This document shows, piece after piece, positions 3,916-62,484 of a stretch of DNA of 64,000 nt. The notes below the pieces were generated by a model. The model made no database searches. It had not been told where the DNA came from and worked only from the letters and a program-made list of their open reading frames with translations. The stretch comes from a virus (taxonomy: Duplodnaviria > Caudoviricetes), in IMG/VR virus record IMGVR_UViG_3300027819_000006; one strand, given 5' to 3'. Position 1 is the first letter of the stretch. Every line of letters begins with the position of its first letter. The translations under genes and the position numbers were made by a program.

Positions 3916-3917
3916 TT

Positions 3918-4919: not shown

Positions 4920-4942
4920 TATTGTTATTCTTCATCATTTAT

Positions 4943-5028: not shown

Positions 5029-5036
5029 TATATTTT

Positions 5037-5110: not shown

Positions 5111-5118
5111 CTATTTAT

Positions 5119-5142
5119 TGGTGCACTTGATAGGATTCGAAC
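5119..5142 (-). pseudogene. tRNA 3' fragment
   Basis: GTTCGAATCCTATCAAGTGCACCA only. Confidence 0.6.
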
Positions 5143-5159
5143 ATATATGAGATTTTTAT

Positions 5160-5237
5160 TGGTGGGTCTGGCAGGAATTGCACCCGCATTTTTCTCCTTA
5201 AAAGGGAGCTACAAAAGCTAATTTTTGTTACAGACCC
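5160..5237 (-). tRNA. tRNA-Lys(TTT), atypical D-arm
   Basis: CTCC-CT-TTT-AA-GGAG arm, GGGTCTG/CAGACCC acceptor, CCA. Confidence 0.75.
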
Positions 5238-5821
5238 ATTAAAATCTTTAATTCATTTATGCATTTTAAAACATTTTCTTTAACATCTTGAGCTTCAAAT
5301 CTTATAACTTTCCAACCATTTTCTATACTAAATTTATCTCTTCTTTCATCTATTAATTTAACTTTTGGTAAATTATGTGTAGACCCATCAATTTCAACAT
5401 CAATTTTTAAATCTATAAAAGCAAAATCATAACAATATATACTATGCTGATAATTGTATATCCATCCTTCAATGTTTGAATATTCTAAAGCATTTTTGAA
5501 TATTTTTTCTGGATAACTCATTTTAGAGCAATGATTTAGTTTGTATGGAACTTTTTCTGGATGTTCCATTAAATATTTTATTCGATGTAAAGATAATTTG
5601 TTTCTAGTTTCTTCAGTGTGATGTCTGCCTGTCCAATATATTCTTGCTGATTCTGATCTTTTCTTCCTCAATATTTCACTTTTATCATTATCAAGACAAA
5701 ACATTACATGAGAAGTCATTTTTTGTGGTATATCAAAACAAAATTCTTTTTTACAATGTTTGCATACATATATTTTCATTATGATCCTCCAATTATATAA
5801 TAAATATAACTGTCGAATCAT
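5228..5821 (-). CDS. DUF559/Vsr-like free-standing endonuclease
   Basis: SYPE..YDFAF..VEIDGSTH..RRD..GWKVIRF; N-terminal Zn finger; likely start at Met 5776. Confidence 0.75.
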   Translation of the reverse strand: MIRQLYLLYNWRIIMKIYVCKHCKKEFCFDIPQKMTSHVMFCLDNDKSEILRKKRSESARIYWTGRHHTEETRNKLSLHRIKYLMEHPEKVPYKLNHCSKMSYPEKIFKNALEYSNIEGWIYNYQHSIYCYDFAFIDLKIDVEIDGSTHNLPKVKLIDERRDKFSIENGWKVIRFEAQDVKENVLKCINELKILMGL

Positions 5822-5896
5822 AAAAGACTTATGTAAAAAATATTTAATAAGCTAGTTCCAGTCATGGTGTACAAGTGCTTTTAATATTCAATATTT

Positions 5897-6007
5897 TGGC
5901 TGGCATGGTGGGTACCGCCCCCACATAATCTCCGTTAATTTTACATCTCTTAGGTTTAGCCTAATTGATGGGACAGCGGAGCGCAATTGCTTGTCTGCCA
6001 CATGCCA
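5897..6007 (-). tRNA. tRNA-Asn(GTT) interrupted by 35-nt insert (5938-5972)
   Basis: TGGCATG/CATGCCA acceptor, G73, CCA; removing the insert gives CTCCG-CT-GTT-AA-CGGAG. Confidence 0.75.
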
Positions 6008-6048
6008 GTATTTAAATTAGATTGTCTGCAACAATTTTTGTATAGTTT

Positions 6049-6082
6049 AATATAAACAATCTATGATCAAATGTAAACAACT
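6049..6082 (-). promoter_or_regulatory. conserved phage promoter driving the tRNA array
   Basis: AGTTGTTTACATTTGATCATAGATTGTTTATATT = TTTACA-N17-TATATT. Confidence 0.8.
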
Positions 6083-6099
6083 ATTTTAACAAAAACAAA

Positions 6100-6293
6100 A
6101 AAGAGATAAAACTTGAATGTCTTATCTCTGTGAAAGCTGTACTGCATATAAGACATTCATTCTAAGTCACTGTAGGTCTATTTTCATGATTATAGCTTTT
6201 AAAACTATTAATAGACAAACTATCTGAACATTGCAGATAGTTATCTGATAATAAGTTATGTCTTTGCTGTATGGTCATATGATTAATCTCTTT
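6100..6293 (-). ncRNA. putative multibranched structured RNA
   Basis: 11-bp and 9-bp perfect hairpins, 8-bp closing stem, no ORF. Confidence 0.4.
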
Positions 6294-6336
6294 AGTTGTT
6301 GCTAATATAAATATATCTTAATCATAGCAAAATGCA

Positions 6337-6993
6337 TTAAAAATCAGCAGTCTGTTCTTTGTTTGCCCAAGTATTTGTTGCTATATACTGTATCCTCTTT
6401 TCATTGACAATCTTAACTGCTTCTTCTTTACTTTTAGCCCAGATTGTACAGTATAGCACATGCTCATCTTGCAACAGACTATTTTTGAAATTAGAACTGT
6501 CATCAGAATTAAATAGATAAGGATAGAATCTTTCTTTCTTTTCAAACCATTCACATCTAGGGTCGTAGTTTTTGTCTCCATGGTTCAAATCTTCTACTGG
6601 ATCCTGGCTATAGTCTGACTCAACAATAGAATCACCATTTTCTCTCATATATACTACATAAGTTTTGTAGCCATTATTTATGAATGTCAGAGCTTTGTTT
6701 ATGTTGTCTATTCTGTTGTTCAGTTTAAATGATTCTGTAGAATATTCGCAATCTTGTTGTTCTACTAATCTATTTAATTTTTCTTTGTGATCATCTGTGA
6801 AAACTCCAATTGTCTGCATTCCTGAATATTCACCTTCATATAGAACATGAACAGTTTCTTCATTTTTCATAGATAAAATGAATCTTTCTAATAGTTCTAT
6901 ATTAACTATACCTACTAAATTCATTAATCTTCTTAGCAGATCTTGTTGTTCATAATTCAGATCATATTTTAGAACCAACTCTAATGTTTTCAT
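6337..6993 (-). CDS. hypothetical protein
   Basis: 218-aa ORF, translationally coupled. Confidence 0.7.
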   Translation of the reverse strand: MKTLELVLKYDLNYEQQDLLRRLMNLVGIVNIELLERFILSMKNEETVHVLYEGEYSGMQTIGVFTDDHKEKLNRLVEQQDCEYSTESFKLNNRIDNINKALTFINNGYKTYVVYMRENGDSIVESDYSQDPVEDLNHGDKNYDPRCEWFEKKERFYPYLFNSDDSSNFKNSLLQDEHVLYCTIWAKSKEEAVKIVNEKRIQYIATNTWANKEQTADF

Positions 6994-24664: not shown

Positions 24665-25870
24665 CTAAATAAACTCCCAATGTTTTGTTTCTTGTCGAGC
24701 TTTAGGCATTTCTATATTTAATAGATTGTTTTCCCAATTCTGTTTTTGTTCTGAATCTAATTGGTCATATTCTAACTTTAGATTCCAAATACTCTTACAA
24801 CTTTCGTGATTCTTGCATAGCGCAGAGCATCCTGAAAATTTTTCTTTTTCTTCTATTAAATGCATAACTTTCATTCTATTTTCGACATCATTCCAAATAT
24901 CTATAAAACTCCTCTTATAAACATTGCCATATGAATACTTCAGATGCCCACGAGTATTAGGACACACAAAAATTTCTCCTTGAGCACCTATACATGGAGT
25001 TAACTGACTACCATAGCATTTCTTATAGTGTCGACCAAAGTGAATAGGATCATCTATTAAGTCATTCAACTTATATTCGTTGATCTGAAATTTGTCTCCT
25101 AATATTTCTTTTGCTTGCTTTAATAGTGGTTTTATATCAGTTTCCCAGAATTCTACTTTTCTTTGAGTTTCTCCTTCTTTTTCTACACTGATTATTTCTG
25201 GCTTATATTGACAATAATCTACATCATAATTTTTAAACATGTTAGCAAAATCAATTATTTCAGTATAATTGTCAGGAGTTATAACAAATCCAGTACCTAT
25301 TACTGTTTTGCTATTTATTCGCTTTTTAGTTTCTATTAATTTAGACAGATTAGATAGCATTTTATTCCAATCTGTATTCTTGTTAGTAACTCTAATTCTA
25401 TTATATGTTTCTTCTGTTCCTGAATCTATTGAAAATCTGATCCATTCCATATATTTGCACATAGATTCAAATAGATCAAATTTATCTAGCATTACACCTG
25501 CTGTAAATATACCCATTTTAATGTCAGAATTTTGTCCAATATATTCTAGAACGGGTTTAAATGCGGGTGAAATTGTCGATTCTCCACCCCCTGTGAAGTT
25601 TGTGCTGCGTACTCCAATGCTTATAAGATCTTTTGCTATTTCTAATGCTTTTTCTTTTTGCATTATAGATCTGTCAAATGTTTCAGAATTCTTATATTTA
25701 TCGAAATGAATATGCGCTGACAGGCAGAAGAAACACGAGTGCATACAGCTATTTGACAAGTCCCACTCTATAAGCACTGGAGGTGGATGATTTCCTTTTA
25801 TTAGCTCGATTGTTCTATCTATATTAGCTATTATTTTTTGCTGAGGAGAGAAGATTTTTAAATTTTTCAT
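24665..25870 (-). CDS. radical SAM/SPASM protein
   Basis: CMHSCFFC, FTGGGE, C-terminal Cys cluster with YGNV..SFIDIWN. Confidence 0.92.
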   Translation of the reverse strand: MKNLKIFSPQQKIIANIDRTIELIKGNHPPPVLIEWDLSNSCMHSCFFCLSAHIHFDKYKNSETFDRSIMQKEKALEIAKDLISIGVRSTNFTGGGESTISPAFKPVLEYIGQNSDIKMGIFTAGVMLDKFDLFESMCKYMEWIRFSIDSGTEETYNRIRVTNKNTDWNKMLSNLSKLIETKKRINSKTVIGTGFVITPDNYTEIIDFANMFKNYDVDYCQYKPEIISVEKEGETQRKVEFWETDIKPLLKQAKEILGDKFQINEYKLNDLIDDPIHFGRHYKKCYGSQLTPCIGAQGEIFVCPNTRGHLKYSYGNVYKRSFIDIWNDVENRMKVMHLIEEKEKFSGCSALCKNHESCKSIWNLKLEYDQLDSEQKQNWENNLLNIEMPKARQETKHWEFI

Positions 25871-26855
25871 ATTAAATTCAATTCTTTCATTTTGCTATTA
25901 TCCCATATCTCTATTGGAACATCTATATTGTTTTTAGCAAAAATGAGTTTATTTTTTGATTTTTCATCCATGTATCCTTTTACTTCTATTATTTTTGTAA
26001 GTAAATTATTTTCGAATATAAAGAAATCTCCTCTATAATGATTGTTTTTATCTTGCACTACATTCATATATTCGTATTTCCATACTATATTATTATCATC
26101 TAAATAGCAACTTTTAGCTCCCAAGACGATCTCATCCAAATATCATTATAATATCCACCTTTGCCAATGCCTGCATTTTTATATGCTGGCTCGCCATAAT
26201 GATGATGATTTTCACCTCTCAAATGATCATTACAATGCTGTTCCCACATTTCTAAAGCTTTTTCTCTACCATATTTATCTGTCCAAATATCCAATATAGA
26301 TATACCATACATAGGATTTCCTTCTCCTACATACAGTATCTTATTCCTTTCACTAGTTTTTATAGATATTGCTTTTAATCTATCATCTGTATCTTTAGTC
26401 AATCCTTTATTCCAATTTGGACTTATTATATTTGAGCAAGACATGCAATATAATTCATTCCTACCTATCTCTTTATAGCAAAAAATACATCTACCTTTGC
26501 AGTCTTTGCATATATAAGTATTATTGTTCCATGACAATTTATTTCCACAATACATGCAAAGTTTATCTATAGTGGGAACATGTCTGCATTCTGGGCACGC
26601 ATCATAATCATATTTTATTGTTAAATAATGTAATACTTTATTACAAAATCTGCATCTTTTTCTATCATTGTCTACACACTCACAGCATCTAGTTCGCTCT
26701 TTTGAAGAATTATTACCTAATTTATTATTACAACTTTCACATCTTCTAATTATAATTAATTTTGATTTCTCCAATAAACAATGTTTGCAAACTCCATGGC
26801 TATTTTTATTACCTAATCTATTACTGCACCCTTCTTCTTTACAAAATCTTATCAC
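25867..26855 (-). pseudogene. frameshifted Cys-rich homing-type PD-(D/E)XK endonuclease
   Basis: 26100-26855 ends WMRSSWELKVA; 25867-26139 continues YLDDNNIVWKYE..GDFFI..IIEVKG in another frame. Confidence 0.75.
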
Positions 26856-29324: not shown

Positions 29325-30186
29325 TTATATTAATGATAGTTCTTTCATTTTTTCACCATCCCATACTTCTACAATACAGTGCTCTAGTATTTCTTTTAAT
29401 AATAAAACTTTGAGCATATTTTCCATAGTAACATATCCTTTTACTTCAATTATTTTTATAAGTTCTTTCTTGTTATTATAAATGAAAAAATCTGGTAAGT
29501 ATGAAACATTGTTCCATAAAATATATCTTTTTTCTTCATACTTCCATATTATATTATTGTCGTCTAAATATTTTGCTACTTTTGCTTCCCATGTAGATCT
29601 AAAACATATTTTTTTATATCTAGTTTTTATACCTCTCCCTATTTTGGAACTTAATTTTATAAAACCATTTCTGAAACCATTTTTTCTTGTCTCAGATATC
29701 TTATCTCTTGTTTCTTTACTTACTTCTTTTCCAAACATTGGATTATTTTCGCCTTTGAACTCTTCTCCTTTTCCATATCTTGGATTATTTATTCCTCTGT
29801 AGTGATCATTTAAGTATTGTTCATACATTTCTTCTGCTCTTTCTTGTCCATAATTATCTATCCAAACATCTTTTAAACTTCTATTATATCGAGGATTATT
29901 TTCGCCCTTTAATGATCCATTATCTCTTATTGTTTTAGAAGCTTTTAAAGATATATTTTTGTATATTTCTTTAACTTCGTCTTTATTTCTATTTTTCGTC
30001 CAATGTTCTATTTCTCCACTATCTATTTTTGCTTTTCTAAAACCATTCGATAATTTAGCATTTGGAAATTTTATTTTATATCTTTAATGTCATGTTGTGC
30101 TTTTTAAGATGTGATGCAGTTATAAAAGAAAAAAGCTTATACTCTGTTTTATCTTCTATACATTGTAAGCAATGTATTTTATCCAA
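29325..30186 (-). pseudogene. homing-type NUMOD3 + PD-(D/E)XK endonuclease, frameshift near 30080
   Basis: ORF 29325-29828 extends in frame upstream; Zn-finger N-terminus from TTG 30186 in another frame; RSTWE..YLPDFFI..IIEVKG. Confidence 0.7.
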
Positions 30187-30273
30187 TTTATTCTCCAATA
30201 AAAATATTGTCAAACTATATGTTTAATAGATTTTTGATATCTATTAGCGCTCTGTAATAAATTTATGTTAGTA

Positions 30274-31439: not shown

Positions 31440-32400
31440 TTATTACTCCAGCAAGTTCACATTCTTTTAATAAATAGGACACACGAGCAATTGTTGTATG
31501 ATTCTCAAGAACATATTTAAAACAGTTTGTAGCTACTTTTTCTCTATAATCATCATTATCTAAATTATAAACTGCTTCTAAAAGTGAATCTTCGTCATCA
31601 AAATCTAAGTAATGTTCACCTCTAATAAATGAGTATGGCATATAAATCTTTATTGGTTGAGTGAGAATAAAACATCCATTTGCAAACCCTTCCCACATTC
31701 TTGCAGCGTTACAATTCAGCGACCCATAGCCATCAACACAAATTTTAGAATTGTACAAAGTTTCATAATAGTTAGAATGATCTCTATTACCAGTGTCTAC
31801 TGCAACTTTATTTTTATGATCATACATATTTCCTATAACAGAATTTTCTAACTTTGCATTTTTTAGCGTATTTTCGATCCAGATGCGATCTGGTTTTGTC
31901 TCGTCATGTGGTCCGAACATACATGCTAAATATATATTCTTATTTTTAATGTTATTTAGTATTTCATCATGAGACTTAAAAAAATATCTATTTTCTATAG
32001 CAAATGGGAATGGTTTAACATTTGAAGGATGCTCTAATGACAAAAGCATTTCTCTCTTGAAATAAAGAGCAAAATGCTCAGTGTTCTTTCTATATTTAGA
32101 AAAATCTTCACCATCGACAAAAATTGTCTTGTCTGGTCTAAATATGCTCTCTGCTATGCCATCTTTTGCTTCTTGATTTGAACATAAGATTATTAGATCA
32201 GCTATATCTTTACCAAATTTTACAGCTACATTGTCATCATATAAAGTATGATCATATTGACCTTCTACTTTTGAATAATTGCTTTGTTCAGTACAGTAAA
32301 ATTTTACTTTATTTTGAAGTGAAAGTTCATGCAAGCCCTCTATTAAAGAACTCTGACAAAAATCATAAAATTTTGATTGAATGACTAAAATTTTCAACAT
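31432..32400 (-). CDS. GT-B glycosyltransferase (CgeB/Glyco_trans_1_2-like)
   Basis: FVDGED, SKICVD..RMWEGFANG, ENHTTIARV. Confidence 0.75.
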   Translation of the reverse strand: MLKILVIQSKFYDFCQSSLIEGLHELSLQNKVKFYCTEQSNYSKVEGQYDHTLYDDNVAVKFGKDIADLIILCSNQEAKDGIAESIFRPDKTIFVDGEDFSKYRKNTEHFALYFKREMLLSLEHPSNVKPFPFAIENRYFFKSHDEILNNIKNKNIYLACMFGPHDETKPDRIWIENTLKNAKLENSVIGNMYDHKNKVAVDTGNRDHSNYYETLYNSKICVDGYGSLNCNAARMWEGFANGCFILTQPIKIYMPYSFIRGEHYLDFDDEDSLLEAVYNLDNDDYREKVATNCFKYVLENHTTIARVSYLLKECELAGVINE

Positions 32401-32509
32401 TCTTCTAAAATCTCTTCTATTTCAAACACTTCATTAAATTCTACATTTCCAATAGCTGGATAACCAGCATATATCATTATAATTATCAATTACTATATAA
32501 ACCAGTAAA

Positions 32510-33694
32510 TTAATTTTCTTTGACAGAGAGATTATAGACTCCTCTGTGCAGAATGTTTAGAGCAGCATTGAAATCTGCATCTAAACTTAGACAGCAATTC
32601 AGACATAAAAATTGTTCATTCTTCCTATTTTTTTTATCTCTGAATCCACATGTAGAACAAGTTTGAGATGTATAGAAAGAAGAAACTTTCTTCAATTCTA
32701 TACCCTGTTCTTGACACAGCATTTCAAATTTTGAAATAACACTTGGATAAGACCAATATTGCAACTTACTATTCATTTTTTTGCTATATTTTGATTTATG
32801 CTTTACTTGTTGTAAATCTTCCAAGATGACAGTAGAAACATTTTTTAAATCAATGGAGTTGCAAATTTCGTTGATTTTATTGTTTTTGAAAGTAAGATAT
32901 TGTTTATAGTTTTTAGAGCCTCTCTTCATATTTGATAGTATAGTATACATTTGTTTCATTTCTTGACCATAGACATCATTATTTGAAGAAACTATAAGTT
33001 TATTGTAACCTATATCAAAAGCAATGGAATCATGTTTTTCTTTCATCTCTACTTCTTTTTCATATGAAAATATAATATAAAAATTGTCATTTATTTTCTT
33101 TAACTGCACAGTTTTCTTTCTATTCCAGTCTTTATATTTTAAAGATTGCTTATGCCACTTTATTGGAAGATTAATTTGAATTGCTTTCTTTTTATCAGAA
33201 TAAAAATGAGGCAATTTCAGTCCTATAAACTCATTAAAATGAATAGAAGAATTTTCATAGCTGAGTAATCTGTCATCAATATTAATAGAAATATTCTTAA
33301 TGTCTATTTTGCAAATTTTTATAGCATCTTTCAATTTCAAATCTTTAAATCTTTTGTTCAGAAATTTCAGCTGTCTATTTCTTTTGATAAAGTATTTGTA
33401 GCACTTCTTATATTTTTTATATCTTTTATCTAGACAGTATTCTATATTAGATCTGACAATCTCAGAAGCTTGTTTATAGACAATTTGTCTCCACTGAGAA
33501 TGATGAATTTTGTTAATAGGAAGAATCTTAGAAGACAAATTCTTATTTAATTCTAATTTTTGAGATAAAATAAGCTCTATATAAAATTTGACGTCTATTT
33601 CATAATCTTCAAATAGTTGTTCTAAATATTTAATTTTATTTAAATTAGAAAATTTTAAAATATGTCTACTACTTCTTATCAAGATCAATCTCAC
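32510..33694 (-). mobile_element. tnpB: IS200/IS605-family TnpB RNA-guided endonuclease, no TnpA seen
   Basis: RuvC FDIG, LEDL and DAD.NAA.NI; Zn ribbon SQTCSTCG..CLNC. Confidence 0.88.
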
Positions 33695-33702
33695 AATAAA
33701 AA

Positions 33703-33777
33703 TGCCAAGTATTGAACCTCAAATAGACTATGTCTATAAAGATACTTGGCAAATAGATAACATCTATTTGAGGTTCA
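33703..33777 (-). repeat. interleaved double inverted repeat, copy 2
   Basis: 10-bp IR 33703-33712/33742-33751 and 15-bp IR 33713-33727/33763-33777. Confidence 0.85.
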
Positions 33778-33988
33778 TATATAAATATATTGTGAGATTA
33801 GAAAAAGACAAAAAGGTTAAATTTTTACATTTATTTTACATAATTTTACAGAATATAGTTACTAGTTATAATATTTATGAAAGTTGACGCTTGTTGAATT
33901 GTATCAAACTGAGATGAATTCTTTGTAACAATATTTTCTCCCCAATCTGAATCATAGCTCACTGATACTTTCACGCTGAAACTCCTTG

Positions 33989-34546
33989 TTAAATCAAAAC
34001 TTTTTGTTTAATCTGTTTTCTAGCTATTAACTCTGTTCGCATAATATCTTTATCTGTCCAGAGGTATTTTCTGAAAGTGTTAGATTTCAGAACAAAATCT
34101 GTATTTATCAAACCTTGATCATGATACAATTTAGTCCCATCTTTGCAAAAATATTCAAACCAATCATCCCCCAACTGCGTTTGGTGAGTTGGATCGCGGC
34201 GAAACGCAATATCTCCAAATGGTACTTCTATAGTTAGTAAAGCATCATGTTTCATAACTCTATATATTTCATTCATCAAAAATATGAAAGGAGTTAATTT
34301 TTCTATGTTGCCTTCTGAGTCTTGAACATATACAATTTTAGCTGTGTGTTCTAAACCATCAAATATATTTACTTTATCTATAGAACTGTCTAAATTTGGT
34401 AACGGCTGAAATCCAAGATTTAGCTTGAAAAATAGACAGTTTTCAGGTTTAGATTTAGGCTGAACTATATCTATACCAATAGTTTGATAACCTTCTTCTT
34501 CTCTAAAGTTGCTCCCTACAAAAAGCTCGAGCTTGATTTTATCCAT
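33989..34546 (-). CDS. SAM methyltransferase (type 11-like)
   Basis: LELFVG..GIDI..DGLEH..EIYRVMK..IEVP..DPTH. Confidence 0.8.
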   Translation of the reverse strand: MDKIKLELFVGSNFREEEGYQTIGIDIVQPKSKPENCLFFKLNLGFQPLPNLDSSIDKVNIFDGLEHTAKIVYVQDSEGNIEKLTPFIFLMNEIYRVMKHDALLTIEVPFGDIAFRRDPTHQTQLGDDWFEYFCKDGTKLYHDQGLINTDFVLKSNTFRKYLWTDKDIMRTELIARKQIKQKVLI

Positions 34547-35046
34547 TAATTTATTCCCAATTTCTGTTCTATTAATTTTCTTGTAATATAGTGTAAATTA
34601 AATTTGTAACAATATTCTATATACCATTGTTGTATAGTATTTTTATTCTTTTTAGCTTTTGCAGCACCTTTCCAATCACATATCATTTCTTCTACATATT
34701 TTTCTGGTATTTCTAATGCTATACACTTATCATACTCTTCATCTTCTTCAATATCAATTTCTAATGGCATAATCCAATATTGCCAATGATGTTTATTTCT
34801 TGCAAAATGTAAAAATACTGCTCTATCAAATTTATCACCAGAATTATGTGTCGAATTATATACTTTCTTGCTTCTATTTCCTGCACTTTTACCATAAAAA
34901 TATTCTGAATATGCTAAAAATTCTGATGGACAAAAAGACGAAATATCATGAATTAATCCCAGCAATGGTCTACCAATTTTGCACATTTCTAAAAAAACAT
35001 ACCATTTATGAATTAATCGATATCTTAAGTGTTTTAAATATTTCAT
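34546..35046 (-). CDS. HD-like protein (DUF5662-like)
   Basis: HKWYV, IHDISSF, HFARNKHHWQYW, EMICDW. Confidence 0.75.
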   Translation of the reverse strand: MKYLKHLRYRLIHKWYVFLEMCKIGRPLLGLIHDISSFCPSEFLAYSEYFYGKSAGNRSKKVYNSTHNSGDKFDRAVFLHFARNKHHWQYWIMPLEIDIEEDEEYDKCIALEIPEKYVEEMICDWKGAAKAKKNKNTIQQWYIEYCYKFNLHYITRKLIEQKLGIN

Positions 35047-35109
35047 TTTTAACTAGTCTCAAATTGATTGGATTGCTTAGCATCCCTTGAATCGCTTAGC
35101 GTCTTTAAT

Positions 35110-36045
35110 TTACACCTTTTTATTTTTCAACATTTTTCTCAATGTTCTTACCAACTGCTTCCTTGCTTGATTCATTCTTTTGGTCTTTAAATCTCTTCTC
35201 TTCCTACGTATTGGCTTTAATCCTTGAGCAATCCTATCTTCATTGATCTTCTTTCTATTTTCTTCTTTGTCAATTTTCTTCTGTTCTCTGTTCTGTATAT
35301 CAATTAAAACAAGCTTATTTCTCTGTTCTGTAATATAGTCTAATAAATGATTTGATAAATAAGCAGATTTGCAAATTCCAGGAGTATTGCCAAGAAATTC
35401 AGAAGTTTTTGTAACGATCAGTTTTATTTCCTTGCTCAAATCTACTTTTTTAAGAGGAAGCTCTTTATCTTTGATAAAATCTTCATATATGCAGAAAGCT
35501 GTGTAGTTTGCTGCTAATGTTCGAAAATCTTTTGTAGTGAATATTTTGCCTATATTCTTCTTTAAATACTTCTTTATGCTTTTATCTGTGATATTTAGCC
35601 ATAAATCTGTTGATGATTCTTCATAAAATTTATGACCATATTCAATTAAAATTTTATCATCAGAAGTTATAAATTGGCTTACAACTTTTTTTCCTACAAA
35701 ATCTAGTATGATATGATTGTCATAAAATAGAATATGTTCCTTTTTCAGAGTAGAAGCTCCAAAAGTTTGAACAAATTCGCCTTCATGTCCTTTAACTACC
35801 GCTGTATAACCTTCAGCTGAGCCCTCATTTCCCACACGAATTCCGGTTTTGCAGAGTAGATATATAGCATATGCTTCTTTTGATCCAGTTTTAATATCTT
35901 CTACAATCTCGGGTTCAATTTTTGTCCAAACTTCAGCAAGCTTGTTTACTCTATTAAATTTAGAAGCTTTCTTATCCTTCTGCTTAATTCTATTGCTTTT
36001 AGAGAAAAATTCTACCTCTCTACCATTGAATATCAGTTTTGACAT
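35110..36045 (-). CDS. DNA topoisomerase IB
   Basis: TGIRVGNE, FGASTL, FVGKK, KDFRT, LGNTPGICKSAY (catalytic Tyr). Confidence 0.92.
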   Translation of the reverse strand: MSKLIFNGREVEFFSKSNRIKQKDKKASKFNRVNKLAEVWTKIEPEIVEDIKTGSKEAYAIYLLCKTGIRVGNEGSAEGYTAVVKGHEGEFVQTFGASTLKKEHILFYDNHIILDFVGKKVVSQFITSDDKILIEYGHKFYEESSTDLWLNITDKSIKKYLKKNIGKIFTTKDFRTLAANYTAFCIYEDFIKDKELPLKKVDLSKEIKLIVTKTSEFLGNTPGICKSAYLSNHLLDYITEQRNKLVLIDIQNREQKKIDKEENRKKINEDRIAQGLKPIRRKRRDLKTKRMNQARKQLVRTLRKMLKNKKV

Positions 36046-36084
36046 TTTTCTCTCTATTTAATAATAACACATTGTTTATGATTA

Positions 36085-36118
36085 AATATAAACAAATATC
36101 ATACAAATGTAAACAACT
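36085..36118 (-). promoter_or_regulatory. conserved phage promoter upstream of topoisomerase IB
   Basis: AGTTGTTTACATTTG...TTTGTTTATATT. Confidence 0.75.
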
Positions 36119-37247
36119 TTTTTTCATCTTTTAATAAATCTTCTTTAAACAAAATATAGAATATTTTTGATTCTTTATCGTATTTTTCAATAAAAATTTG
36201 CATTTTCTCTTTAGATTCTGGTCTCATCCAGCCTTTAACTTCTTCTATTCTTATCAAATTATTATTTTCATCATAGATAAAGAAATCAGGAGTATAAGTT
36301 GTATTTTCTAATTTATAAGTTATTTCTTCATATTTCCAATTTGCAGATATAGAATCTAGAAATTGAGCTCTTTCCAGCTCATAGGTAGATTTCATCTTTA
36401 TTTCAGCATTGTTTCTATCTGCATAAACAACTCGATGCCACTTAGGAGATACTCCATACATAGGATTTCCAGAACCAGATCTATCTATAGACCATTTTTG
36501 TTTTTGTTCGTCTGAAAAAATATATCCATACATGCTATTTTTGCTACCAGTCATAGGATTAACACGATGATTTTCTTTATGTTTATTAATTAATTTTAAT
36601 AATTTATTTTCTGCAATTTCCTCTCCATATTTAATTACCCAAGCATCAAAAAAAGACATTCCAAACATTGGGTTTTTGTCTCCTTTTAATGATTCAGAAA
36701 TGTTTCTCTTATGAGAATCTGAAAGTTTTTTATCTTGCCAAACACCAGGCCTACCCATTAAAGATTTAGATATTTTTTCTTTTACTCCAGGCTTATGTAC
36801 AGGATTTCTATCTCCAAGTTTACAACAAACTCTGCACATATTTAAATCTGCAGAAACTACATTAGTGCATCCTTCTTCAACACAATAGAAAGTTTTAGAA
36901 GCTTTACATTCATCACAAATAAAAATTTTTCTATGACCTTTAAGCATTTTATCTCCACATACTGTACATCTACAAGTATTTTTCTCAGACATATAAAATT
37001 GATGTTTTGAACATCTACTACCTTCATTTTTTACTTTATTGTTGCAATTTTCTATTAAGCATTTATATTCTATTTTATTTCTGCAATCTCCACAAATACC
37101 AATTTTATTAGTTCCGCCTATAGGATTTATTTTACAAGTTTTGCATATTAATGGAGGTTTTCCACTCTTACATCTTTTACAGATATTACTTTTATAATTA
37201 ACATTAAGTTTTTTAGGGCACGATATACAGTATCTATCTTCTTGCAT
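36099..37247 (-). CDS. Cys-rich NUMOD3 + PD-(D/E)XK homing-type endonuclease
   Basis: many CxxC pairs, GDKNPMFG repeats, KSTYE..YTPDFFIY..EEVKGW. Confidence 0.8.
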   Translation of the reverse strand: MQEDRYCISCPKKLNVNYKSNICKRCKSGKPPLICKTCKINPIGGTNKIGICGDCRNKIEYKCLIENCNNKVKNEGSRCSKHQFYMSEKNTCRCTVCGDKMLKGHRKIFICDECKASKTFYCVEEGCTNVVSADLNMCRVCCKLGDRNPVHKPGVKEKISKSLMGRPGVWQDKKLSDSHKRNISESLKGDKNPMFGMSFFDAWVIKYGEEIAENKLLKLINKHKENHRVNPMTGSKNSMYGYIFSDEQKQKWSIDRSGSGNPMYGVSPKWHRVVYADRNNAEIKMKSTYELERAQFLDSISANWKYEEITYKLENTTYTPDFFIYDENNNLIRIEEVKGWMRPESKEKMQIFIEKYDKESKIFYILFKEDLLKDEKKLFTFV

Positions 37248-37260
37248 TACCTCTCCAAAA

Positions 37261-37352
37261 AAAAATTGTCTATAGTAGCACCCTAATAGACTGAAGTCAG
37301 AAGGCTATAGACAATTTTTCAAATATATTTATGTTTTGTCTATTAGTGTGCT
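37261..37352 (-). repeat. interleaved double inverted repeat, copy 3
   Basis: 15-bp IR 37261-37275/37305-37319; 15-bp IR with one mismatch 37277-37291/37338-37352. Confidence 0.8.
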
Positions 37353-37603
37353 TATAATAAATATATTTGATCAAGAAATAAATGCATTTGACCTATCCCT
37401 GTCTCTGCCATTAGCAGATATCCATATCCCTCTTTTGAACCAGCTTCTATATCTTTAATTATCTTTGGTTCAATAGTTCCCCAGTCTCTAGCAATTTTTC
37501 CTACACGTACAAACTTTGCAATTTTCTTGTCTTTTTGCTTTATTCTACCATTTGGATCAGAGAAGAATACTGCTGGCCTATTTTCGTAAGTGAAGTTGAT
37601 CAT
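37352..37603 (-). pseudogene. truncated second topoisomerase IB N-terminus
   Basis: RIKQKDKK.KF.RV..IEP.I..DI..GSKE..TGI matches 35110-36045 and stops just before the catalytic Arg. Confidence 0.85.
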
Positions 37604-37669
37604 TTAGTAATTCTCCTCTATTTTGGTATGTTTAAATATAAATTTCATACCAAAAGTAAAGGATTATTT

Positions 37670-38359
37670 TCAAAAATTACACTGACATCCTTTTAACATT
37701 AAAATGTCCATATCGCAAATACAGCCCCAAACTCTATTTGTTTTCTCTAATTGAGCTTTTATGGATTCTTTAACATTTGTAACTTCATATCGAGAAAAAA
37801 TTTTATCTGATAATTCTGCATGAGGTATAAATGGAATATAGATACTTAATATATGTCTATTATCTAATCTCTTACAAATAGAATCTATAAACTTAGTTTC
37901 ATCATCTATTTCAAAATCTAACATTCTTGTTTCAGCTGTTATTGCTGTAGCTATTACTCTATCTTTACAAGTTTCTTTGTCATACATAAATAAAACTCTA
38001 GATGGCAAATTCATACTTTCATAACCATATATTATATTTTTATTTGTCATAATTTGAAGATGATAAACTAATTTTATTATATGACTATACAGTTTATTTG
38101 TGTAATCTGAAGTAAAACATCGATTTAATTGATCATAATCAGCCAAGAATCTTTCTTGATTTCTTAATAGAGTTATAGCTGTGCATTTAGAATATTCTGT
38201 CAGTTTTTCATATTCTTCACAATTTAAAACATTTTTCAATTTAATTTTAAGTTCTTCTATAGCATTCTCATTCAAACTATAACATTCTATATCAACTATC
38301 ATATGCTGTATTTTTGAATATATGCATTTCAACCAAGGATGTATTATATCTATATTCAT
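37670..38359 (-). CDS. hypothetical protein with C-terminal CxC-x8-G-CxC tag
   Basis: ends CICDMDILMLKGCQCNF. Confidence 0.75.
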   Translation of the reverse strand: MNIDIIHPWLKCIYSKIQHMIVDIECYSLNENAIEELKIKLKNVLNCEEYEKLTEYSKCTAITLLRNQERFLADYDQLNRCFTSDYTNKLYSHIIKLVYHLQIMTNKNIIYGYESMNLPSRVLFMYDKETCKDRVIATAITAETRMLDFEIDDETKFIDSICKRLDNRHILSIYIPFIPHAELSDKIFSRYEVTNVKESIKAQLEKTNRVWGCICDMDILMLKGCQCNF

Positions 38360-38362
38360 TTT

Positions 38363-39148
38363 CTATTTAACAAATTGTTCTAAAATTTGTCCTTTCGTTA
38401 TGTTATATTGTTTTAGCAATTGCTTTTTATATTCCATATTATGCGTGTGCAGTAAAGAAATTTCAGGTGTCCACTCTAGCCGGGGTAATTCTTTGCGCTG
38501 CATGTCGTGCCAATAATATTCTAATAGATGTCGATTTATTTCTATATTAAACTCTTCATCATTTAGCATTGTGAAATTTATGATTCTGTCTCTAAGTGTA
38601 TATAGAATATATTCTTCTGTATTTTCAAATCCTAAAGATGTTGGTGCGTATTTATCAATTAGCTTTTGCTGTCTTAATCGAAAATCACAAACTTTAAATT
38701 GAAAAGGTAATATTCTGTGCAAAAATTTTCTTCTAAACATCATACAATCTGGTGCTACCAATTCATTGCAATCTATTCCTGCTGAGAATTGCTTACCAGA
38801 ATCTATAAAATTTTGAACAGCTTTTACAAATCCTTGTTCTGTTAAAAAATGCACATCAAAATTATGTATAACTACTGTATCTCTGTAGCCAGCATTAGCA
38901 TAAGACAGCCCTTCGTTTATTTCTGAAAGTGCTCCTGTAGCAGGATTTTTGTCAATCGGCATAGAAATAAATGCATTCTCAAATACTCCTGAGCAAATCT
39001 TTGTAAGATCTCCGTTGTAAACTGTTACATGTTGCAGATCTTTGTTGAAAGAATAGTTGCTAATTATATCAATTCCAGTATAATATTCAAATACTTTGTT
39101 GACAGATCCAATTCTGATCAAAATTATATTTTTAGGATCAAACATCAT
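38363..39148 (-). CDS. glycosyltransferase-like (GT-A) protein
   Basis: VIHNFDVHF, PDCMMFRR, LLHTHN; island context. Confidence 0.5.
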   Translation of the reverse strand: MMFDPKNIILIRIGSVNKVFEYYTGIDIISNYSFNKDLQHVTVYNGDLTKICSGVFENAFISMPIDKNPATGALSEINEGLSYANAGYRDTVVIHNFDVHFLTEQGFVKAVQNFIDSGKQFSAGIDCNELVAPDCMMFRRKFLHRILPFQFKVCDFRLRQQKLIDKYAPTSLGFENTEEYILYTLRDRIINFTMLNDEEFNIEINRHLLEYYWHDMQRKELPRLEWTPEISLLHTHNMEYKKQLLKQYNITKGQILEQFVK

Positions 39149-39620
39149 AATCTATAGCAATCATTTCACTTTGTTTAGTATTATATACATATTGCAACTT
39201 TCCAGATTTATATGAAGCAAAAATAACATCCAATCTTCCATACTCTATCAAATGACTTTCAGTAGCTGTATATGGATAGCTTTTTAGATCTGATAATCCA
39301 AGCTTATACTTGAATGTATTGAAATCATTCACTTCTTCATATTTCATTTTTACTGTTGTCATTTTAGCAACCCTTTATTTAAATTATGGAACTATAATAC
39401 TACTTGTCATCTGTCTGTGCATTGCTTCATATATGAGTTCTGGTATCTGCAAAGTTCTACAATGCGAACATACAATTGTAGGAATGGGTCCTAAATTGAA
39501 ACCCATTAGTTTCTCATCATCTTTCTGTTCATAACCACAAGCTACACATATAAAATGATCAGATGCTTCATTTTCTTGTTTTTCTTCCGAGCCAGGGAAT
39601 TGTAATATATTGTCAGCCAT
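39138..39620 (-). CDS. two small hypothetical proteins (39138-39362; 39384-39620 Zn-ribbon)
   Basis: CVAC..CSHC in the second ORF. Confidence 0.55.
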
Positions 39621-40191
39621 TTTCCTCCACTATTTTTTCAATGATGCCGTGTATCAAACAAATGCTTGATATCTCATGAACTCCATATCCACTTTCTTTA
39701 AACCATATAATATCGTCAAAACACTTTTTAGATTCTTCATATGTATTTTGAAATCCAAATATTCCAATTGTTTTGCACTTAACAGATTTTGCATATGCAG
39801 AAGCATGTAAAATATTCTTAGACTTACCACTAGAAGATATAGATATTAGTAAATCATTTTCATTTAGATTAAATCTTTTTAGCCATTCAATATAAATATT
39901 TTCAAAAGTGTAATCATTGCCAAAACAAGTTAACATAGACCCAGAAGACATTACATGAGCTTCTATATTACATCTTTTAAATAGATCATTTGCTATATGA
40001 TCGCAGTTGCTCCAAGATCCCCCATTTCCTGCAAGGAATATTCTTTTACTTGATTTTATAGCATTATATAAATTATATACAGAGTTAATATTTGTAGAAC
40101 ATACAAATTTATTTACTTCACACGAGAACTTTGCTACAAAATCATTTACTTCATAAACATCTTTCAGCTGTTCTTCCATACTACTTTGCAA
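39613..40191 (-). CDS. gmhA: phosphoheptose isomerase (SIS domain)
   Basis: AGNGGSWSNCDH, NDYTF, ISSSGKSKN, HE. Confidence 0.85.
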   Translation of the reverse strand: MQSSMEEQLKDVYEVNDFVAKFSCEVNKFVCSTNINSVYNLYNAIKSSKRIFLAGNGGSWSNCDHIANDLFKRCNIEAHVMSSGSMLTCFGNDYTFENIYIEWLKRFNLNENDLLISISSSGKSKNILHASAYAKSVKCKTIGIFGFQNTYEESKKCFDDIIWFKESGYGVHEISSICLIHGIIEKIVEENG

Positions 40192-40858
40192 CTCTTGTAG
40201 TTACCTTCACTTCTTTTCTGTTCAACACTCTGTCTTTAACTTCTGATACTACTTGAGCAAGATGTGCTTCAACATGTTTTACATATTCAGCAACTACTAG
40301 TTCTTCTGCTTTAGCCTTGCTTTCTACATCTTCAAAAACATGTGTAAATGCAGGAACTACATGCAGTGCATCTTCTACTAGCTCTACTACTTTAACTTTT
40401 ACTTTCATTTTGTTTCTCCATAAATTTAGTTGTGATTTCTTGTGTCATAGTTCTATATTCGTAAAAATCTGACTCTGGTCTTTTGATAATTTGCAATAAT
40501 GGTTGCTCTATACTATTAGATATTAAACAGTAGTGCACAAAAGTATATGGATCTATAAAGTGTTTACCAGTTTTAAGATCACTTCTTCCATCGAACTGTT
40601 TAAAATCTTTTACTATAGCTGTAATTACTTTTTTAGGAAATGCTTTTATCATTTAGTTAGTATGTTGTCCTGTTTGATTTCTGCTAATTTTGTTTCTTTA
40701 AACTGTTCTACATTGATATTTTTTTTAAATAGCTCATATTTAAATCGAACCATATCTTCTATGCCTATCATAGCTTCTTTTACAGCATCTACTTTATGCA
40801 ATGCTTCTAAAGTTAATAGAGCTTCAGCATCTAAATTTGCATCTTTTAATAGATTCAC
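40181..40858 (-). CDS. three small hypothetical proteins (40181-40408, 40392-40652, 40649-40858)
   Basis: coupled ORFs. Confidence 0.5.
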
Positions 40859-41021
40859 ACATTTGCTCCTATTTAGTTAGAATATCTTGTTTAATTTCTG
40901 ATATTAGTTTACTTATTTCTTGTAGCTTTAATAAAGTTCTTTCATTTTTTAAACGTAATTTTTCATTTTCTTCATTTAAATTGAAATTATCTTGTTGTAG
41001 CTGCTTTAAATCTTTTTTCAT

Positions 41022-42020
41022 CTATTCCTCAATATTGAAAATAATACGACTCCCATAAGAATCTATCTCAAAATGTTCTTCTGTCAAGCCTAAGCTATTC
41101 ATTGAAGCTCTTACATTCTCTTGTTTGTCTGGTTTGGCGTATAGTATTAAATATCCTCCCCCACCGGCTCCTGTAATCTTACCACCTGTTGCTCCAGCTT
41201 GTATTGCTGAATTATAAAGATTGTCAATATGCTCATTGCTTATATTACTACTAAATGTTTTCTTTAACTCCCAGTTCTTAGACATTGTTCGGCCAATAGC
41301 ATCAAAATCTCTATTTTTCAAACTAACATTTAGATGTTTAGCTAATTCTACATTTAGATGCATTGCTTCTATTACTTTTTGATTGTCAATTAAATTGCTA
41401 TTCTGTTCATTGAGCACAGAAGATGATTCTCTAGTTATTCCAGTATTAAACATTAAAATGTTTCTAGATATGCTTTTTAGCTCATCATCTGAGAAGTCAT
41501 ATCTCGATATTCCTACATAGTCATTCTTCTCAAATAGAAATCTGTTGAAACCACCAACTGATGCCCAGTATTGATCCTGAACACCGATATTACGGTTGCA
41601 CATGTTTATCTCTATATGACAAGCCTCTTTAGCTAATCTTTCTTTAGAAACTTGCTGACCATTCATAGTATATAAAGCATTCAATAGAGACACTAAAAAT
41701 GAGCTAGAAGACCCAAGTCCTGTGCCCTTTAAAGAAATATCAGAAAAACAAACTATTTCTAGTCCACAATCTATATTTAGATATTTTAAAGTATTTTTAA
41801 CAAAATCATGCTTTATCGAATTTATATTATTTACATCAACTATTTCATTTTCTGAATATTTAAGAAATATCTTATTATCTTTTCTTTTCTTAACCAGAAC
41901 ATATGTAAATTTATTTATAGAAAAACCTATACATATTCCGCCATATTTTTTAAAATATATTGGAGAATCACTTCCTCCACCGCAGAGTCCCAAACGAGTC
42001 GGAGATTTACTTAAAATCAA
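41022..42020 (-). CDS. hddA: D-glycero-alpha-D-manno-heptose-7-phosphate kinase (GHMP)
   Basis: PTRLGLCGGGSD, GTGLGSSSS, GVQDQY, GGKITGAGGGG. Confidence 0.9.
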   Translation of the reverse strand: MILSKSPTRLGLCGGGSDSPIYFKKYGGICIGFSINKFTYVLVKKRKDNKIFLKYSENEIVDVNNINSIKHDFVKNTLKYLNIDCGLEIVCFSDISLKGTGLGSSSSFLVSLLNALYTMNGQQVSKERLAKEACHIEINMCNRNIGVQDQYWASVGGFNRFLFEKNDYVGISRYDFSDDELKSISRNILMFNTGITRESSSVLNEQNSNLIDNQKVIEAMHLNVELAKHLNVSLKNRDFDAIGRTMSKNWELKKTFSSNISNEHIDNLYNSAIQAGATGGKITGAGGGGYLILYAKPDKQENVRASMNSLGLTEEHFEIDSYGSRIIFNIEE

Positions 42021-60072: not shown

Positions 60073-60105
60073 ATAATAAATATATTTGAGAAAATGCAAA
60101 ATGCA

Positions 60106-62484
60106 TTATTTTAGTTTACATTTTATAAAAAATCCCTTATCGATATCTTGTAAATATTCATATTCTAAATTTACTAAATTTAACAAATATTCTATAGCTT
60201 TAGGAGTTGGTAGCCATACGTGCTCTCCCTTACCTATGGTTTGCCATCTCTGCATATGTTCTTGTGCTTCTATGCATCTAAAATTTGGACATCCTATAAA
60301 TAATAGTGAATTTTCATGCATCAAATTTTTACAATTATTTAAGAATTCTAAAGGATTTGTATGCTCTATTACTTGATCAGAAAATAGAATATCAAATTTT
60401 TTATCAGTAAATAGTTCAAAACTACCATATAGAAGCTTGTTTTTTAATTCTGGGAATAATTCTAATCCTTTATCTATGCTGGGCTTATTTATATCTACTC
60501 CTACAGCATCATAGCCTTCTTCTATAGCAGCTTTTACAACCAGTCCGCAGTTAGCTCCAATATCTATAAAAGAACCTGAATTTTTGTACTGCTTAGCTTT
60601 CAAAACATTGGGTTTAGAATGATTATTAAAAACTTCTTGCCATCTAAAACTATATTCATCAGATATATTCTTCTCTTGATCTATATGTATATTGTAATCA
60701 TTTTTCTGTATGAAATCTAATTCCTCATTTACATAGTATTGACTTCCTGGAATATTAAAATAGAATTTAGATTTTTTGCTATTATCTATCATTAGCTTAG
60801 GTTTTTCTAAGAATTTATCAATAGCTGCTATAACATGCTCTGGTTCGATGCTAGACATGCATATAAATTGACTAGTGTTTACGCATTTTGGAATAAAAGT
60901 TAATCCACCATTGTCTAACAAGTTAAAAAATTGTGAATGTTTGCATGAAATGCATTCTAGAGCATTATTCTGTATATAGTATATATATTCTCTGTTAGCA
61001 TTGCTTAAATAAGTAGAAGCTGCTCCATTGATAGCGATAGAGGGAATATTAAATGATCTTGCTATATGAATTGGACCATTATCTCCACCTAAGAAAAATT
61101 CGCTATGTTTAATTAGAGATAATAGTGTTTTTAAATCGACTTTATGATACTTGCTGTCTGTCAATTCAGAAAAATCAGATAGACCAGGCTCTATTACTTT
61201 ATGACCTTTTTTTTGTAAATATTCTATTATAGATTTATATTTAGCTTGTCCTAAAGTTTTTCCTCCCCACCCGCTACCATCTGCTACTACCACAACATAG
61301 GGTTTTAAATGAGAAAAATCTTCATATAGATGATTACTATTATCTAGTTCAGCATATTTATCTTTTGGATTATTAAACGTTATATCTGCTGTTCTAGCAT
61401 AGGAATCAATGAATAATTTATTTTTTGAGCTCTCATATGATAGATCGAGAGAGATTTTTAACTGATGATTAGTATTGTTTAAATGATCTTCTAATATTAA
61501 TTTGTCATCTATTTTTACTATTTCATCGGGCTTATGAGCAAAATATTCTACTATTTCAGGTTTAGCTGTATAGAAAGTAATTTTGCATCCTTCATATTTT
61601 TGTCTTAATTTCTTTACTATCGGCTCACATAGCAATATATCTCCAATACCAACTACACGAGAAATTCCAATGTCAACTATTCCAGATGTCTGTTTTAGTA
61701 TATCTAATATTCTATTATTGTGTTCTGTAAATGCAGCATTTCCCATCAGAGTTGGAAATGTTCTCTTTATTTCTATATCATCATCTTTTTCTATAATTTC
61801 TTCTTTAATGTCTACAGATTTAGGTGCTCCAATTTGCTTAGCTATATCTTCCAAAGACATCTGCTGTTTTCCACCACCAAATTTGACCCATTGAACAACA
61901 GTAATTTCTGCTGGTATGCAACCTCTATATCCTTTTTCTGCCCATTGCTTCAGTACAAGCCCAGGCATGAATAGAGGCTGTCCATCTTTTACTTCTACAC
62001 ATTTATTCCAGTCTACTTCTACATCTTTGAAATGACAGATTTCATCTAAACATATTTCTTCTATTTTTGGAGGATTTGATATTCTGAAACCAATTGTATT
62101 CAGAGGATGATCTGGAATATCTACATTTCTATATTCGCAATGTCCAAGAGCATATTTACAGTGCTTATTATTTGCAAAATCTTCTAAATGTGCAGCTATA
62201 TGTCTTGGAAACCACATTATGTTATTGACAGTCTTGTAAAAAATAATATCAGCAGAAGCTAACTTAAGTGCCTCATTGAATAGAGAGACACTCTCGTCAG
62301 TTTTAATAAATCTTATATTTAGAGATATTTCTTTACACTTCTCTTTAACAGTATCTAAATCTCTTATAGAAGACACAATTAAATCTATATTTTTATGAGT
62401 CTGTTCAAACACATTCTTGATAGAGTTTTGAACATGTATGTCATCTGAATTTTCAGCTATTAATATGACGGTTACTAAATCCAA
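60106..62484 (-). CDS. multidomain GT2-like + GT9 + SAM methyltransferase protein
   Basis: N-terminal GT-A-like; GIGDILL..GGDNGPIHIA (GT9); FIDIGANCG..DQVIEH (MTase). Confidence 0.85.
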   Translation of the reverse strand: MDLVTVILIAENSDDIHVQNSIKNVFEQTHKNIDLIVSSIRDLDTVKEKCKEISLNIRFIKTDESVSLFNEALKLASADIIFYKTVNNIMWFPRHIAAHLEDFANNKHCKYALGHCEYRNVDIPDHPLNTIGFRISNPPKIEEICLDEICHFKDVEVDWNKCVEVKDGQPLFMPGLVLKQWAEKGYRGCIPAEITVVQWVKFGGGKQQMSLEDIAKQIGAPKSVDIKEEIIEKDDDIEIKRTFPTLMGNAAFTEHNNRILDILKQTSGIVDIGISRVVGIGDILLCEPIVKKLRQKYEGCKITFYTAKPEIVEYFAHKPDEIVKIDDKLILEDHLNNTNHQLKISLDLSYESSKNKLFIDSYARTADITFNNPKDKYAELDNSNHLYEDFSHLKPYVVVVADGSGWGGKTLGQAKYKSIIEYLQKKGHKVIEPGLSDFSELTDSKYHKVDLKTLLSLIKHSEFFLGGDNGPIHIARSFNIPSIAINGAASTYLSNANREYIYYIQNNALECISCKHSQFFNLLDNGGLTFIPKCVNTSQFICMSSIEPEHVIAAIDKFLEKPKLMIDNSKKSKFYFNIPGSQYYVNEELDFIQKNDYNIHIDQEKNISDEYSFRWQEVFNNHSKPNVLKAKQYKNSGSFIDIGANCGLVVKAAIEEGYDAVGVDINKPSIDKGLELFPELKNKLLYGSFELFTDKKFDILFSDQVIEHTNPLEFLNNCKNLMHENSLLFIGCPNFRCIEAQEHMQRWQTIGKGEHVWLPTPKAIEYLLNLVNLEYEYLQDIDKGFFIKCKLK

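Follow-up and report, generated by a model that had tools for sequence, protein, structure and literature searches.

The stretch of DNA analysed here (64,000 nt, hereafter the window) comes from an uncultured groundwater jumbo phage with contigs of up to 272 kb, and the minus strand is the coding strand for all genes throughout. The locus of interest is centred on a gene for a 382-aa homing endonuclease (36099–37247, minus), identified from Pfam and PHROGs matches, its paralogues in the window, and a conserved C-terminal domain. The predicted protein is composed of Cys-rich zinc-ribbon repeats, NUMOD3 repeats (Pfam NUMOD3, 1.3e-10), and a C-terminal nuclease domain of the PD-(D/E)xK type (motif PDF...EVK), with a weak match to DUF1064 and matches to resolvase/endonuclease families in PHROGs. 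The PD...ExK motif is intact and is conserved in relatives of the protein, and the combination of a nuclease domain with modular DNA-binding repeats, encoded outside an intron or intein, places the gene amongst the free-standing homing endonucleases.

Downstream, after a spacer of 53 nt, lies an intact topoisomerase IB (Topo IB) gene (311 aa; 35110–36045, minus; Pfam Topoisom_I, 1.9e-16), for which 86 homologues were collected and which matches solved poxvirus Topo IB structures. Reading upstream from the start codon of the nuclease gene (ATG, 37245–37247), the minus strand carries a Shine-Dalgarno sequence (GGAGAGG, 37250–37256), a U tract (37257–37260), a set of interleaved inverted repeats (37261–37352), and a promoter-like region (37354–37388, minus) consisting of AATGCATTT (37380–37388), 13 nt, and an exact 16-mer (37354–37369) ending in TATTAT. 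The leader and the nuclease gene are one cassette of ~1.3 kb, of which the promoter-like region is the left end. Upstream of the repeats is an 83-codon ORF (37352–37603, minus), the stop codon of which overlaps the outer arm of the repeat.

Nuclease genes are a recurrent feature of the window. Two members of the nuclease family are decayed, one (25867–26855) being split by a frameshift into ORFs of 251 and 90 aa and the other (29325–30190) retaining only the C-terminal 167 aa, with N-terminal remnants upstream. An array of 13 tRNA genes (400–5240) is interspersed with nuclease genes at 2340–3227 (NUMOD3) and 5228–5778 (DUF559); two similar 26-nt stretches (~3335–3360 and ~2165–2190, minus; ~20/26 identical) lie on either side of the former, and a 23-nt inverted repeat (2204–2302) corresponds to the extended acceptor region of tRNA-Ile(tat). 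Genes for radical-SAM/SPASM, SIS-domain, GHMP-kinase, and glycosyltransferase-methyltransferase proteins are found around the cassettes (24665–25870, 39613–42020, and 60106–62484), which suggests sugar or DNA-modification pathways.

Topoisomerase IB sequence on both sides of the cassette

Codons 1–70 of the upstream ORF (37394–37603, minus; hereafter the stub) were identified by BLASTP as the start of a Topo IB allele, apparently displaced. The stub shares 51% identity with residues 1–69 of the intact Topo IB (E 3e-21), the two gene starts are ~65% identical in DNA, and homology to every relative stops at stub residue 70. The remainder of the ORF (37352–37393, minus; 13 codons and the stop) is, judged from sequence, translation, and alignment, a non-homologous tail. 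Upstream of the coding sequence, block X (minus) comprises the stub together with its promoter-like/RBS region and reaches 37642, and block Y (35839–36092, minus) comprises a promoter-like block (36077–36092), the RBS, and codons 1–69 of the intact gene; both begin at a common box, TTTATATTTAA(A/T)CATA (37642–37627 and 36092–36077, respectively). Since the duplication extends upstream through the RBS to this box, two blocks of ~250 nt flank a segment of 1,301 nt (37393–36093) made up of the leader, the nuclease gene, and 6 nt. A gap of 6 nt separates the nuclease stop codon from block Y, and the fit of the duplicated blocks around the cassette leaves 0–6 nt to spare. The upstream block is a dead-end stub, and the downstream block heads the intact Topo IB gene. 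The first-pass annotation had described a truncated topoisomerase gene at this position; the breakpoint in Topo IB sequence is real, but the gene itself is uninterrupted and the fragment is a diverged duplicate of codons 1–70.

The last homologous residues of the stub, T-G-I, correspond to T67-G68-I69 in the intact protein, and the next positions in the family (86 homologues) are R70 (86/86), V, and G72 (86/86). The stub ends one codon before this Arg-x-Gly motif, the only invariant motif in the N-terminal third of Topo IB; in the intact gene the codon of the invariant Arg70 is at 35836–35838. We take R70 to be the first catalytic arginine from its alignment position relative to the poxvirus enzymes and from what is known of the family, as the HMMER alignment to the poxvirus structures starts at residue 93. 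The last nucleotide of Topo IB homology is 37394 (37391 when GGT is scored against CGT), and cassette-type sequence begins at 37388, from where it agrees with the left-hand flank of another of the window's nuclease leaders (the 60073–60088 side). The junction can therefore be placed at 37388–37394, which is 36–42 nt from the outer repeat arm; the tail of the stub ORF being translated cassette sequence, the junction interval also falls at the start of that tail. It is the promoter-like motif, and not the repeat, that forms the edge of the incoming DNA. The expectation of the first-pass annotation that the element lies close to the insertion boundary holds up under this mapping, the junction not being far from the element. 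The repeat belongs to the DNA that arrived with the nuclease gene. The closeness of the repeat to the boundary is explained by its being the 5' leader of the nuclease gene.

The Topo IB site is the cleanest junction of the leader family in this window. A stub was detectable at the Topo IB cassette only, of the seven nuclease cassettes in the window, and none was found around the other six nuclease genes at E below 0.01. The check proposed in the first-pass annotation combined the mapping of the junction with an uninterrupted allele; the junction has been mapped, but an uninterrupted allele was not found in the searches. No match to 35000–38400 was obtained by blastn against 50,697 phage records, tblastn with Topo IB returned only matches of 34% and 28%, and scans of viral contigs with Topo IB and with the nuclease recovered no uninterrupted allele. 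A word-indexed search with the stub for longer proteins found none, and in a HMMER scan of 1.84 billion representatives the closest match to the stub was the same genome's own Topo IB (54%); no close sister genome was found in these searches. Four groundwater DNA runs, and no RNA run, were listed as containing the stretch or parts of it, and their contigs were only fragments of the same phage, with no joint across the cassette. With every search for an uninterrupted allele blank, the cut site proposed below, and the direction of the proposed event, are read from a single genome. At the loci with a 52%-identical Topo IB (L002–L007), there is no nuclease upstream, a 155-aa HNH gene overlaps the 3' end of the Topo IB gene, and the gene neighbourhood differs; the overlap indicates that Topo IB is tied to a different nuclease, at the other gene end, in a second phage lineage.

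The N-terminus of the stub is nearer than that of the intact protein to four of the seven close relatives (stub/intact identities of 49/39, 49/42, 55/43, and 52/43%); for the remaining three, the two are about equally close. This is the pattern to be expected were the stub the original gene start. The identity between the two copies, in protein and in DNA, is low, so they separated long ago. This divergence would also suit an old tandem duplication, or the acquisition of a second Topo IB, after which the cassette landed in the upstream copy and the 3' part of that copy was deleted, the Arg-x-Gly motif not being a target; the failure of the searches to return an uninterrupted allele agrees with such a history. 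We consider it distinctly improbable, as there is no spare flanking sequence, block Y resumes only 6 nt beyond the nuclease stop codon with no 3' remnant of a first copy, both blocks begin at the same promoter-like box, and the break is positioned exactly at the only invariant motif of the N-terminal third, as homing sites are. A duplication leaves this exact fit unexplained.

Interleaved repeats and the recurrence of the leader

A repeat search of the window resolved two inverted repeats at 37261–37352. The arms of repeat A (37261–37275 and 37305–37319) pair at 15/15 positions, the arms of repeat B (37277–37291 and 37338–37352) pair at 14/15 with one mismatch, and the plus-strand order A-B-A'-B' is interleaved with a gap of 1 nt between A and B. 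In the sense of the mRNA (minus strand), B' (37338–37352) is the 5' arm of helix B and A' (37305–37319) the 5' arm of helix A, and these are followed by B (37277–37291) and then A (37261–37275), next to which lie UUUU and the Shine-Dalgarno sequence. Both 15-mer arm sequences are unique in the window except for their own partners. There are three independent sites in the window with two interleaved inverted repeats of ≥13 nt, compared with none in 40 dinucleotide-preserving shuffles of the whole window, by which a chance origin of the interleaved repeats is ruled out. The repeat search and the shuffles confirm the perfect and single-mismatch 15-bp repeats with a 1-nt gap that had been described from the sequence in the first pass.

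A third inverted repeat, absent from the earlier list, overlaps the A/B set (C'/C, 37319–37370, minus; C' at 37357–37370 and C at 37319–37332) and is perfect at 14/14 positions. C' is the region of the promoter-like 16-mer, C lies within the B'–A' spacer, and the pair is part of the minimum-free-energy fold. The B'–A' spacer also contains a reverse-oriented near-copy of the promoter-like 16-mer (37320–37335, plus; two mismatches), which points toward the stub, occurs at this site only, and is a possible antisense promoter. Within the nuclease ORF, ~760 nt downstream of the leader, a third copy of A' with one mismatch (36485–36499, minus) could pair with arm A; by a rough estimate, ~0.03–0.05 such matches would be expected by chance.

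The repeats belong to a leader that was verified in seven copies, four in the window and three in a second phage contig (Ga0118719_1006158, from a JGI metagenome). In the window, all on the minus strand, the leader precedes the 382-aa nuclease gene (37261–37352), a NUMOD3/PD-(D/E)xK gene at 59973–59110 (leader at 60072–59988), a frameshifted nuclease paralogue at 26855–26100 and 26139–25867 (leader at 26963–26875), and a TnpB gene at 33694–32510 (leader at ~33790–33690). In the second contig, one copy precedes a 35%-identical nuclease and two precede HNH (DUF7487) homing-endonuclease genes. All of the genes behind the seven leaders encode selfish nucleases (four PD-(D/E)xK with NUMOD3, two HNH/DUF7487, and one TnpB), and the leader was found in front of none of the ~110 other genes examined.

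In all copies the order in mRNA sense is promoter-like motif, B', spacer, A', spacer, B, A, U-rich tract, Shine-Dalgarno sequence, and start codon. B' starts 0–2 nt past a TAT(T/A)AT-like box, the B'–A' and A'–B spacers measure 5–18 and 12–16 nt, respectively, and B and A are separated by 0–1 nt in six of the seven copies and by 6 nt in the seventh. Arm A is followed by the U-rich tract and GGAG, with the start codon 14–22 nt after the arm. The helices, each 15 bp at the Topo IB site, range over 15–19 and 9–19 bp across the copies. No sequence relationship connects the arms of different copies, and yet pairing is found at 173 of 177 arm positions (counted over six leaders), with 2–5 pair types per column, so it is the pairing itself that is conserved. 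The leader has been kept through complete turnover of its sequence in front of three unrelated nuclease families, without a match to Rfam.

The exact 16-mer occurs in the window only at 37354–37369 and 60073–60088, each directly 5' of B', and at both sites AATGCATTT is positioned 22 nt upstream of the ATATATTTAT core. The leader at 26963–26875 and the TnpB leader have similar promoter-like motifs with the same spacing. The motif was not picked up in a scan with the sigma-70 consensus. The promoter-like motif is present without the repeats at five nuclease genes that are related or neighbouring (including those of two relatives, L008–L010, and the window genes at 2340–3227 and 5228–5778), from which it follows that the leader is not obligatory. 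In a metagenome scan, strong leaders were confined to the phage of the window and the L013/L014 contig lineage. At 5830–6340 (minus), a bipartite promoter-like motif (AATGCATTT, 13 nt, and a 10-mer including ATATATTTAT) is found right after the stop of the ORF at 6337–6993; it is followed by ~500 nt without an ORF, which include a G+C-rich, structured-looking stretch (~5900–6010), match no Rfam family at the gathering score, and lie upstream of a zinc-finger/DUF559 nuclease gene starting near 5778.

Interleaved pairings are known in the cores of group I introns (P3/P7), which raises the idea that the repeats are paired segments of such an intron, or of another ribozyme, splitting Topo IB. No Rfam family was found with E up to 10 over 32000–39000, and at the gathering score the whole window gave only tRNAs; perfect helices of 15–19 bp are also unlike intron cores, and the downstream Topo IB is complete with its own start codon, leaving nothing to splice. 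Of the explanations considered here, a ribozyme is the least probable, and a group I intron was rejected on the missing covariance-model match and the complete Topo IB.

The first-pass annotation had likened the loop and flank of the element to IS605/IS1341 right ends and had proposed a role in mobility. On that reading, the repeat would be a subterminal hairpin of an IS200/IS605-IS1341-type element and take part in single-strand transposition. Such elements, with the omega-RNA region of TnpB, do resemble the locus in having a structured non-coding segment beside a nuclease gene; one of the seven leaders precedes TnpB (32510–33694), and the loop at the Topo IB site holds a small hairpin, GAC-UUCA-GUC. 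The leader, however, is 5' of its gene and not at a right end, is without TnpA, has an unrepeated sequence, and serves the protein-guided HNH and PD-(D/E)xK nucleases, which have no transposase, as well as it does TnpB. Four unrelated genes and 3.5 kb separate the repeat from the TnpB gene, whose own leader, built in the same way, precedes the gene and is not found at the 3' end. The decamer on which the resemblance was based, GACTTCAGTC, occurs a single time (minus strand, 37298) and is absent from the rest of the window and from the 94 loci compared, and as a hairpin it has a stem of only 3 bp; no Y1 (HUH) transposase gene was present among the neighbouring ORFs scanned. The right-end resemblance is thus not upheld, and a transposon origin of the repeat appears highly improbable. 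As a candidate identity, an IS200/IS605-IS1341 end was discarded because the end sequence does not recur and the adjacent gene is a NUMOD3/PD-(D/E)xK endonuclease. Instead of mobility, the position and polarity of the repeat, fixed relative to the Shine-Dalgarno sequence in all seven copies, point to control of expression.

Folding, geometry, and possible function of the leader

That the repeat is the leader of the nuclease gene, and travels with it, can be stated with high confidence. We would give about even odds to the further proposition that it controls nuclease expression through two mutually exclusive helices. Helices A and B have no nucleotide in common, but they are interleaved and the B–A strand is continuous, so that on geometric grounds both should not form fully and a two-state leader is the simplest reading. 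A full pseudoknot containing both helices was rejected on the same kind of reasoning, since the B'–A' spacer of 5–18 nt would have to span both (~85–90 Angstrom).

Partition-function folds of six leaders showed a switch in the balance of the helices in two (site 2 and TnpB), and in the equilibrium folds A'/A was dominant in four of the six whether or not B' was complete. The accessibility of the Shine-Dalgarno sequence changed clearly only at site 2 and was inconsistent across the six leaders; at the leader of 37261–37352, the mean unpaired probability from the Shine-Dalgarno sequence to the AUG was 0.37 in the read-through RNA and 0.45 in the RNA with its own start. A leader of the T4 type, in which the RBS is sequestered, was rejected because the arms end at least 4 nt upstream of the Shine-Dalgarno sequence and the change in accessibility is inconsistent. 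The presence of a U-rich tract after arm A would be compatible with a terminator, but the loop measures 27–31 nt, and a terminator consensus scan called none at the leader.

In the leaders of the window and of L095, only 2 of the 173 pairs (six leaders counted) are G.U, which makes them as rare as A.C, A.G, or U.U. This near-absence is unusual for selection on RNA only and leaves room for a role at the level of DNA or for copy-correction of the arms. The repeats might then act as hairpins or cruciforms that mark or protect the cassette boundary during repair, or might be a product of templated repair. The almost purely Watson-Crick pairing, the position of the element within ~40 nt of a recombination junction, and folds without a consistent translational read-out are all in keeping with a DNA-level function, and it retains some weight. 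It is nevertheless unlikely given that 7/7 copies keep a fixed polarity and a fixed distance from the Shine-Dalgarno sequence and the start codon, that a U-rich tract after A and a promoter-like motif before B' are oriented to the transcript and would be unneeded by a strand-symmetric DNA structure, and that the three other copies in the window are without a detectable junction or stub. Should a switch function be borne out, the leader would amount to a compact natural device that restrains DNA-cutting enzymes.

Relation to known systems and a proposed route of homing

Several known systems share part of this arrangement. The T-even phages have free-standing homing endonucleases (seg, mob) that spread by intronless homing, and I-TevI and Aeh1 mobE have RBS-sequestering hairpins combined with a nearby late or middle promoter. 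The likeness extends to a selfish nuclease between or inside conserved genes, a promoter-like signal, and a structured leader upstream of the Shine-Dalgarno sequence. In contrast to the T-even leaders, the present leader has two long interleaved helices in place of a single hairpin, the Shine-Dalgarno sequence and the start codon lie outside both helices, and folding shows no consistent masking.

The PeSL and PmSL elements of T4-like phages place a stem-loop upstream of a promoter, followed by a Shine-Dalgarno sequence and start codon (Arbiol 2010, PMC2839356; Comeau 2014, PMC4122927), and the PmSLs have a TGCTT Mot box and a TATTAT −10 box (PMC4122927). They resemble the present leader as short promoter/stem-loop/Shine-Dalgarno/start motifs before variable genes at points of exchange, and their boxes resemble its AATGCATTT ... 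TATTAT, whereas the spacing of the boxes differs. A single stem-loop (a terminator) upstream of the promoter in the PeSL elements stands against two interleaved helices downstream of a promoter-like motif here. Membership in the PeSL/PmSL elements was rejected, as the helices here come after the promoter-like motif, ahead of the Shine-Dalgarno sequence, and not upstream of the promoter.

The duplicated blocks recall a different group of elements. WHO elements of Torulaspora and Lachancea yeasts replace gene ends, for example that of FBA1 (Coughlan et al. 2020, PMC7282813); in fungal mitochondria, mobile endonuclease ORFs create hybrid genes and have a similar way of spreading. As in both, the nuclease lies beside its target, the replacement end is diverged, and the old end is left as a stub beyond the nuclease; a displaced target-gene end beyond the nuclease and an intact gene with a diverged end are both present at the Topo IB locus. 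Here as there, the break is in conserved coding sequence and the target gene stays intact. The differences are that the host is a phage, that the 5' end of the gene with its promoter and RBS is replaced and not the 3' end, that there is one stub and not a trail of several, and that the enzyme is a zinc-ribbon/NUMOD3/PD-(D/E)xK nuclease and not an HO/intein-like LAGLIDADG protein, Pfam and PHROGs giving no HO/WHO family. With a different nuclease family, the resemblance is one in the way of working and not of membership. No phage example of a homing cassette replacing the promoter-proximal end of a gene came up in the literature searched, and the passages matched by word in a survey of phage homing endonucleases at exchange boundaries (PMC10448857) do not mention displaced gene-end stubs.

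The arrangement of genes and repeats is best explained, with a probability that we would put at roughly 0.6, by a homing-endonuclease cassette having replaced the start of the Topo IB gene, with the repeat acting as a two-state RNA leader that controls the nuclease. The nuclease would cut Topo IB alleles at the conserved Arg-x-Gly motif, the type of site that homing enzymes typically choose. The old start ends one codon before an arginine found in 86/86 homologues and the cassette begins 2–5 nt later, which predicts the cut site of the nuclease. In the ensuing repair, the cassette would be installed along with a gene start that is diverged and presumably resistant to cutting, and the old start would be displaced, a form of intronless homing with replacement of a gene end. 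Two versions can be envisaged: the cassette may carry the new start and fuse it to the resident 3' part, as WHO elements do, or all of the sequence downstream of the cut may have been exchanged for the cassette plus a whole foreign allele, the left-hand join being illegitimate. The closeness of the stub to the relatives weakly favours the first.

The repeat would be transcribed as the leader of the nuclease mRNA, and its two states may govern the timing or the amount of nuclease production, at the step of translation, termination, or RNA stability. The leader might, for example, tell read-through transcripts, which would contain the full B', from transcripts begun at the cassette's own promoter-like motif, which ends 0–2 nt before B'.

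On the homing reading, the locus would show a cassette replacing the promoter-proximal end of a gene in a phage. A broader and more tentative proposal, which we regard as plausible but somewhat short of even odds, is that in groundwater jumbo phages a portable, bistable two-helix leader acts as a safety catch for HNH, PD-(D/E)xK, and TnpB nucleases, and that at least one of these cassettes owes its spread to cleavage of an essential gene at the catalytic-arginine codons, after which the start of the gene is rebuilt from a diverged copy carried by the cassette. If true, this would be the phage counterpart of the WHO strategy of yeasts, applied to the 5' end of the gene.
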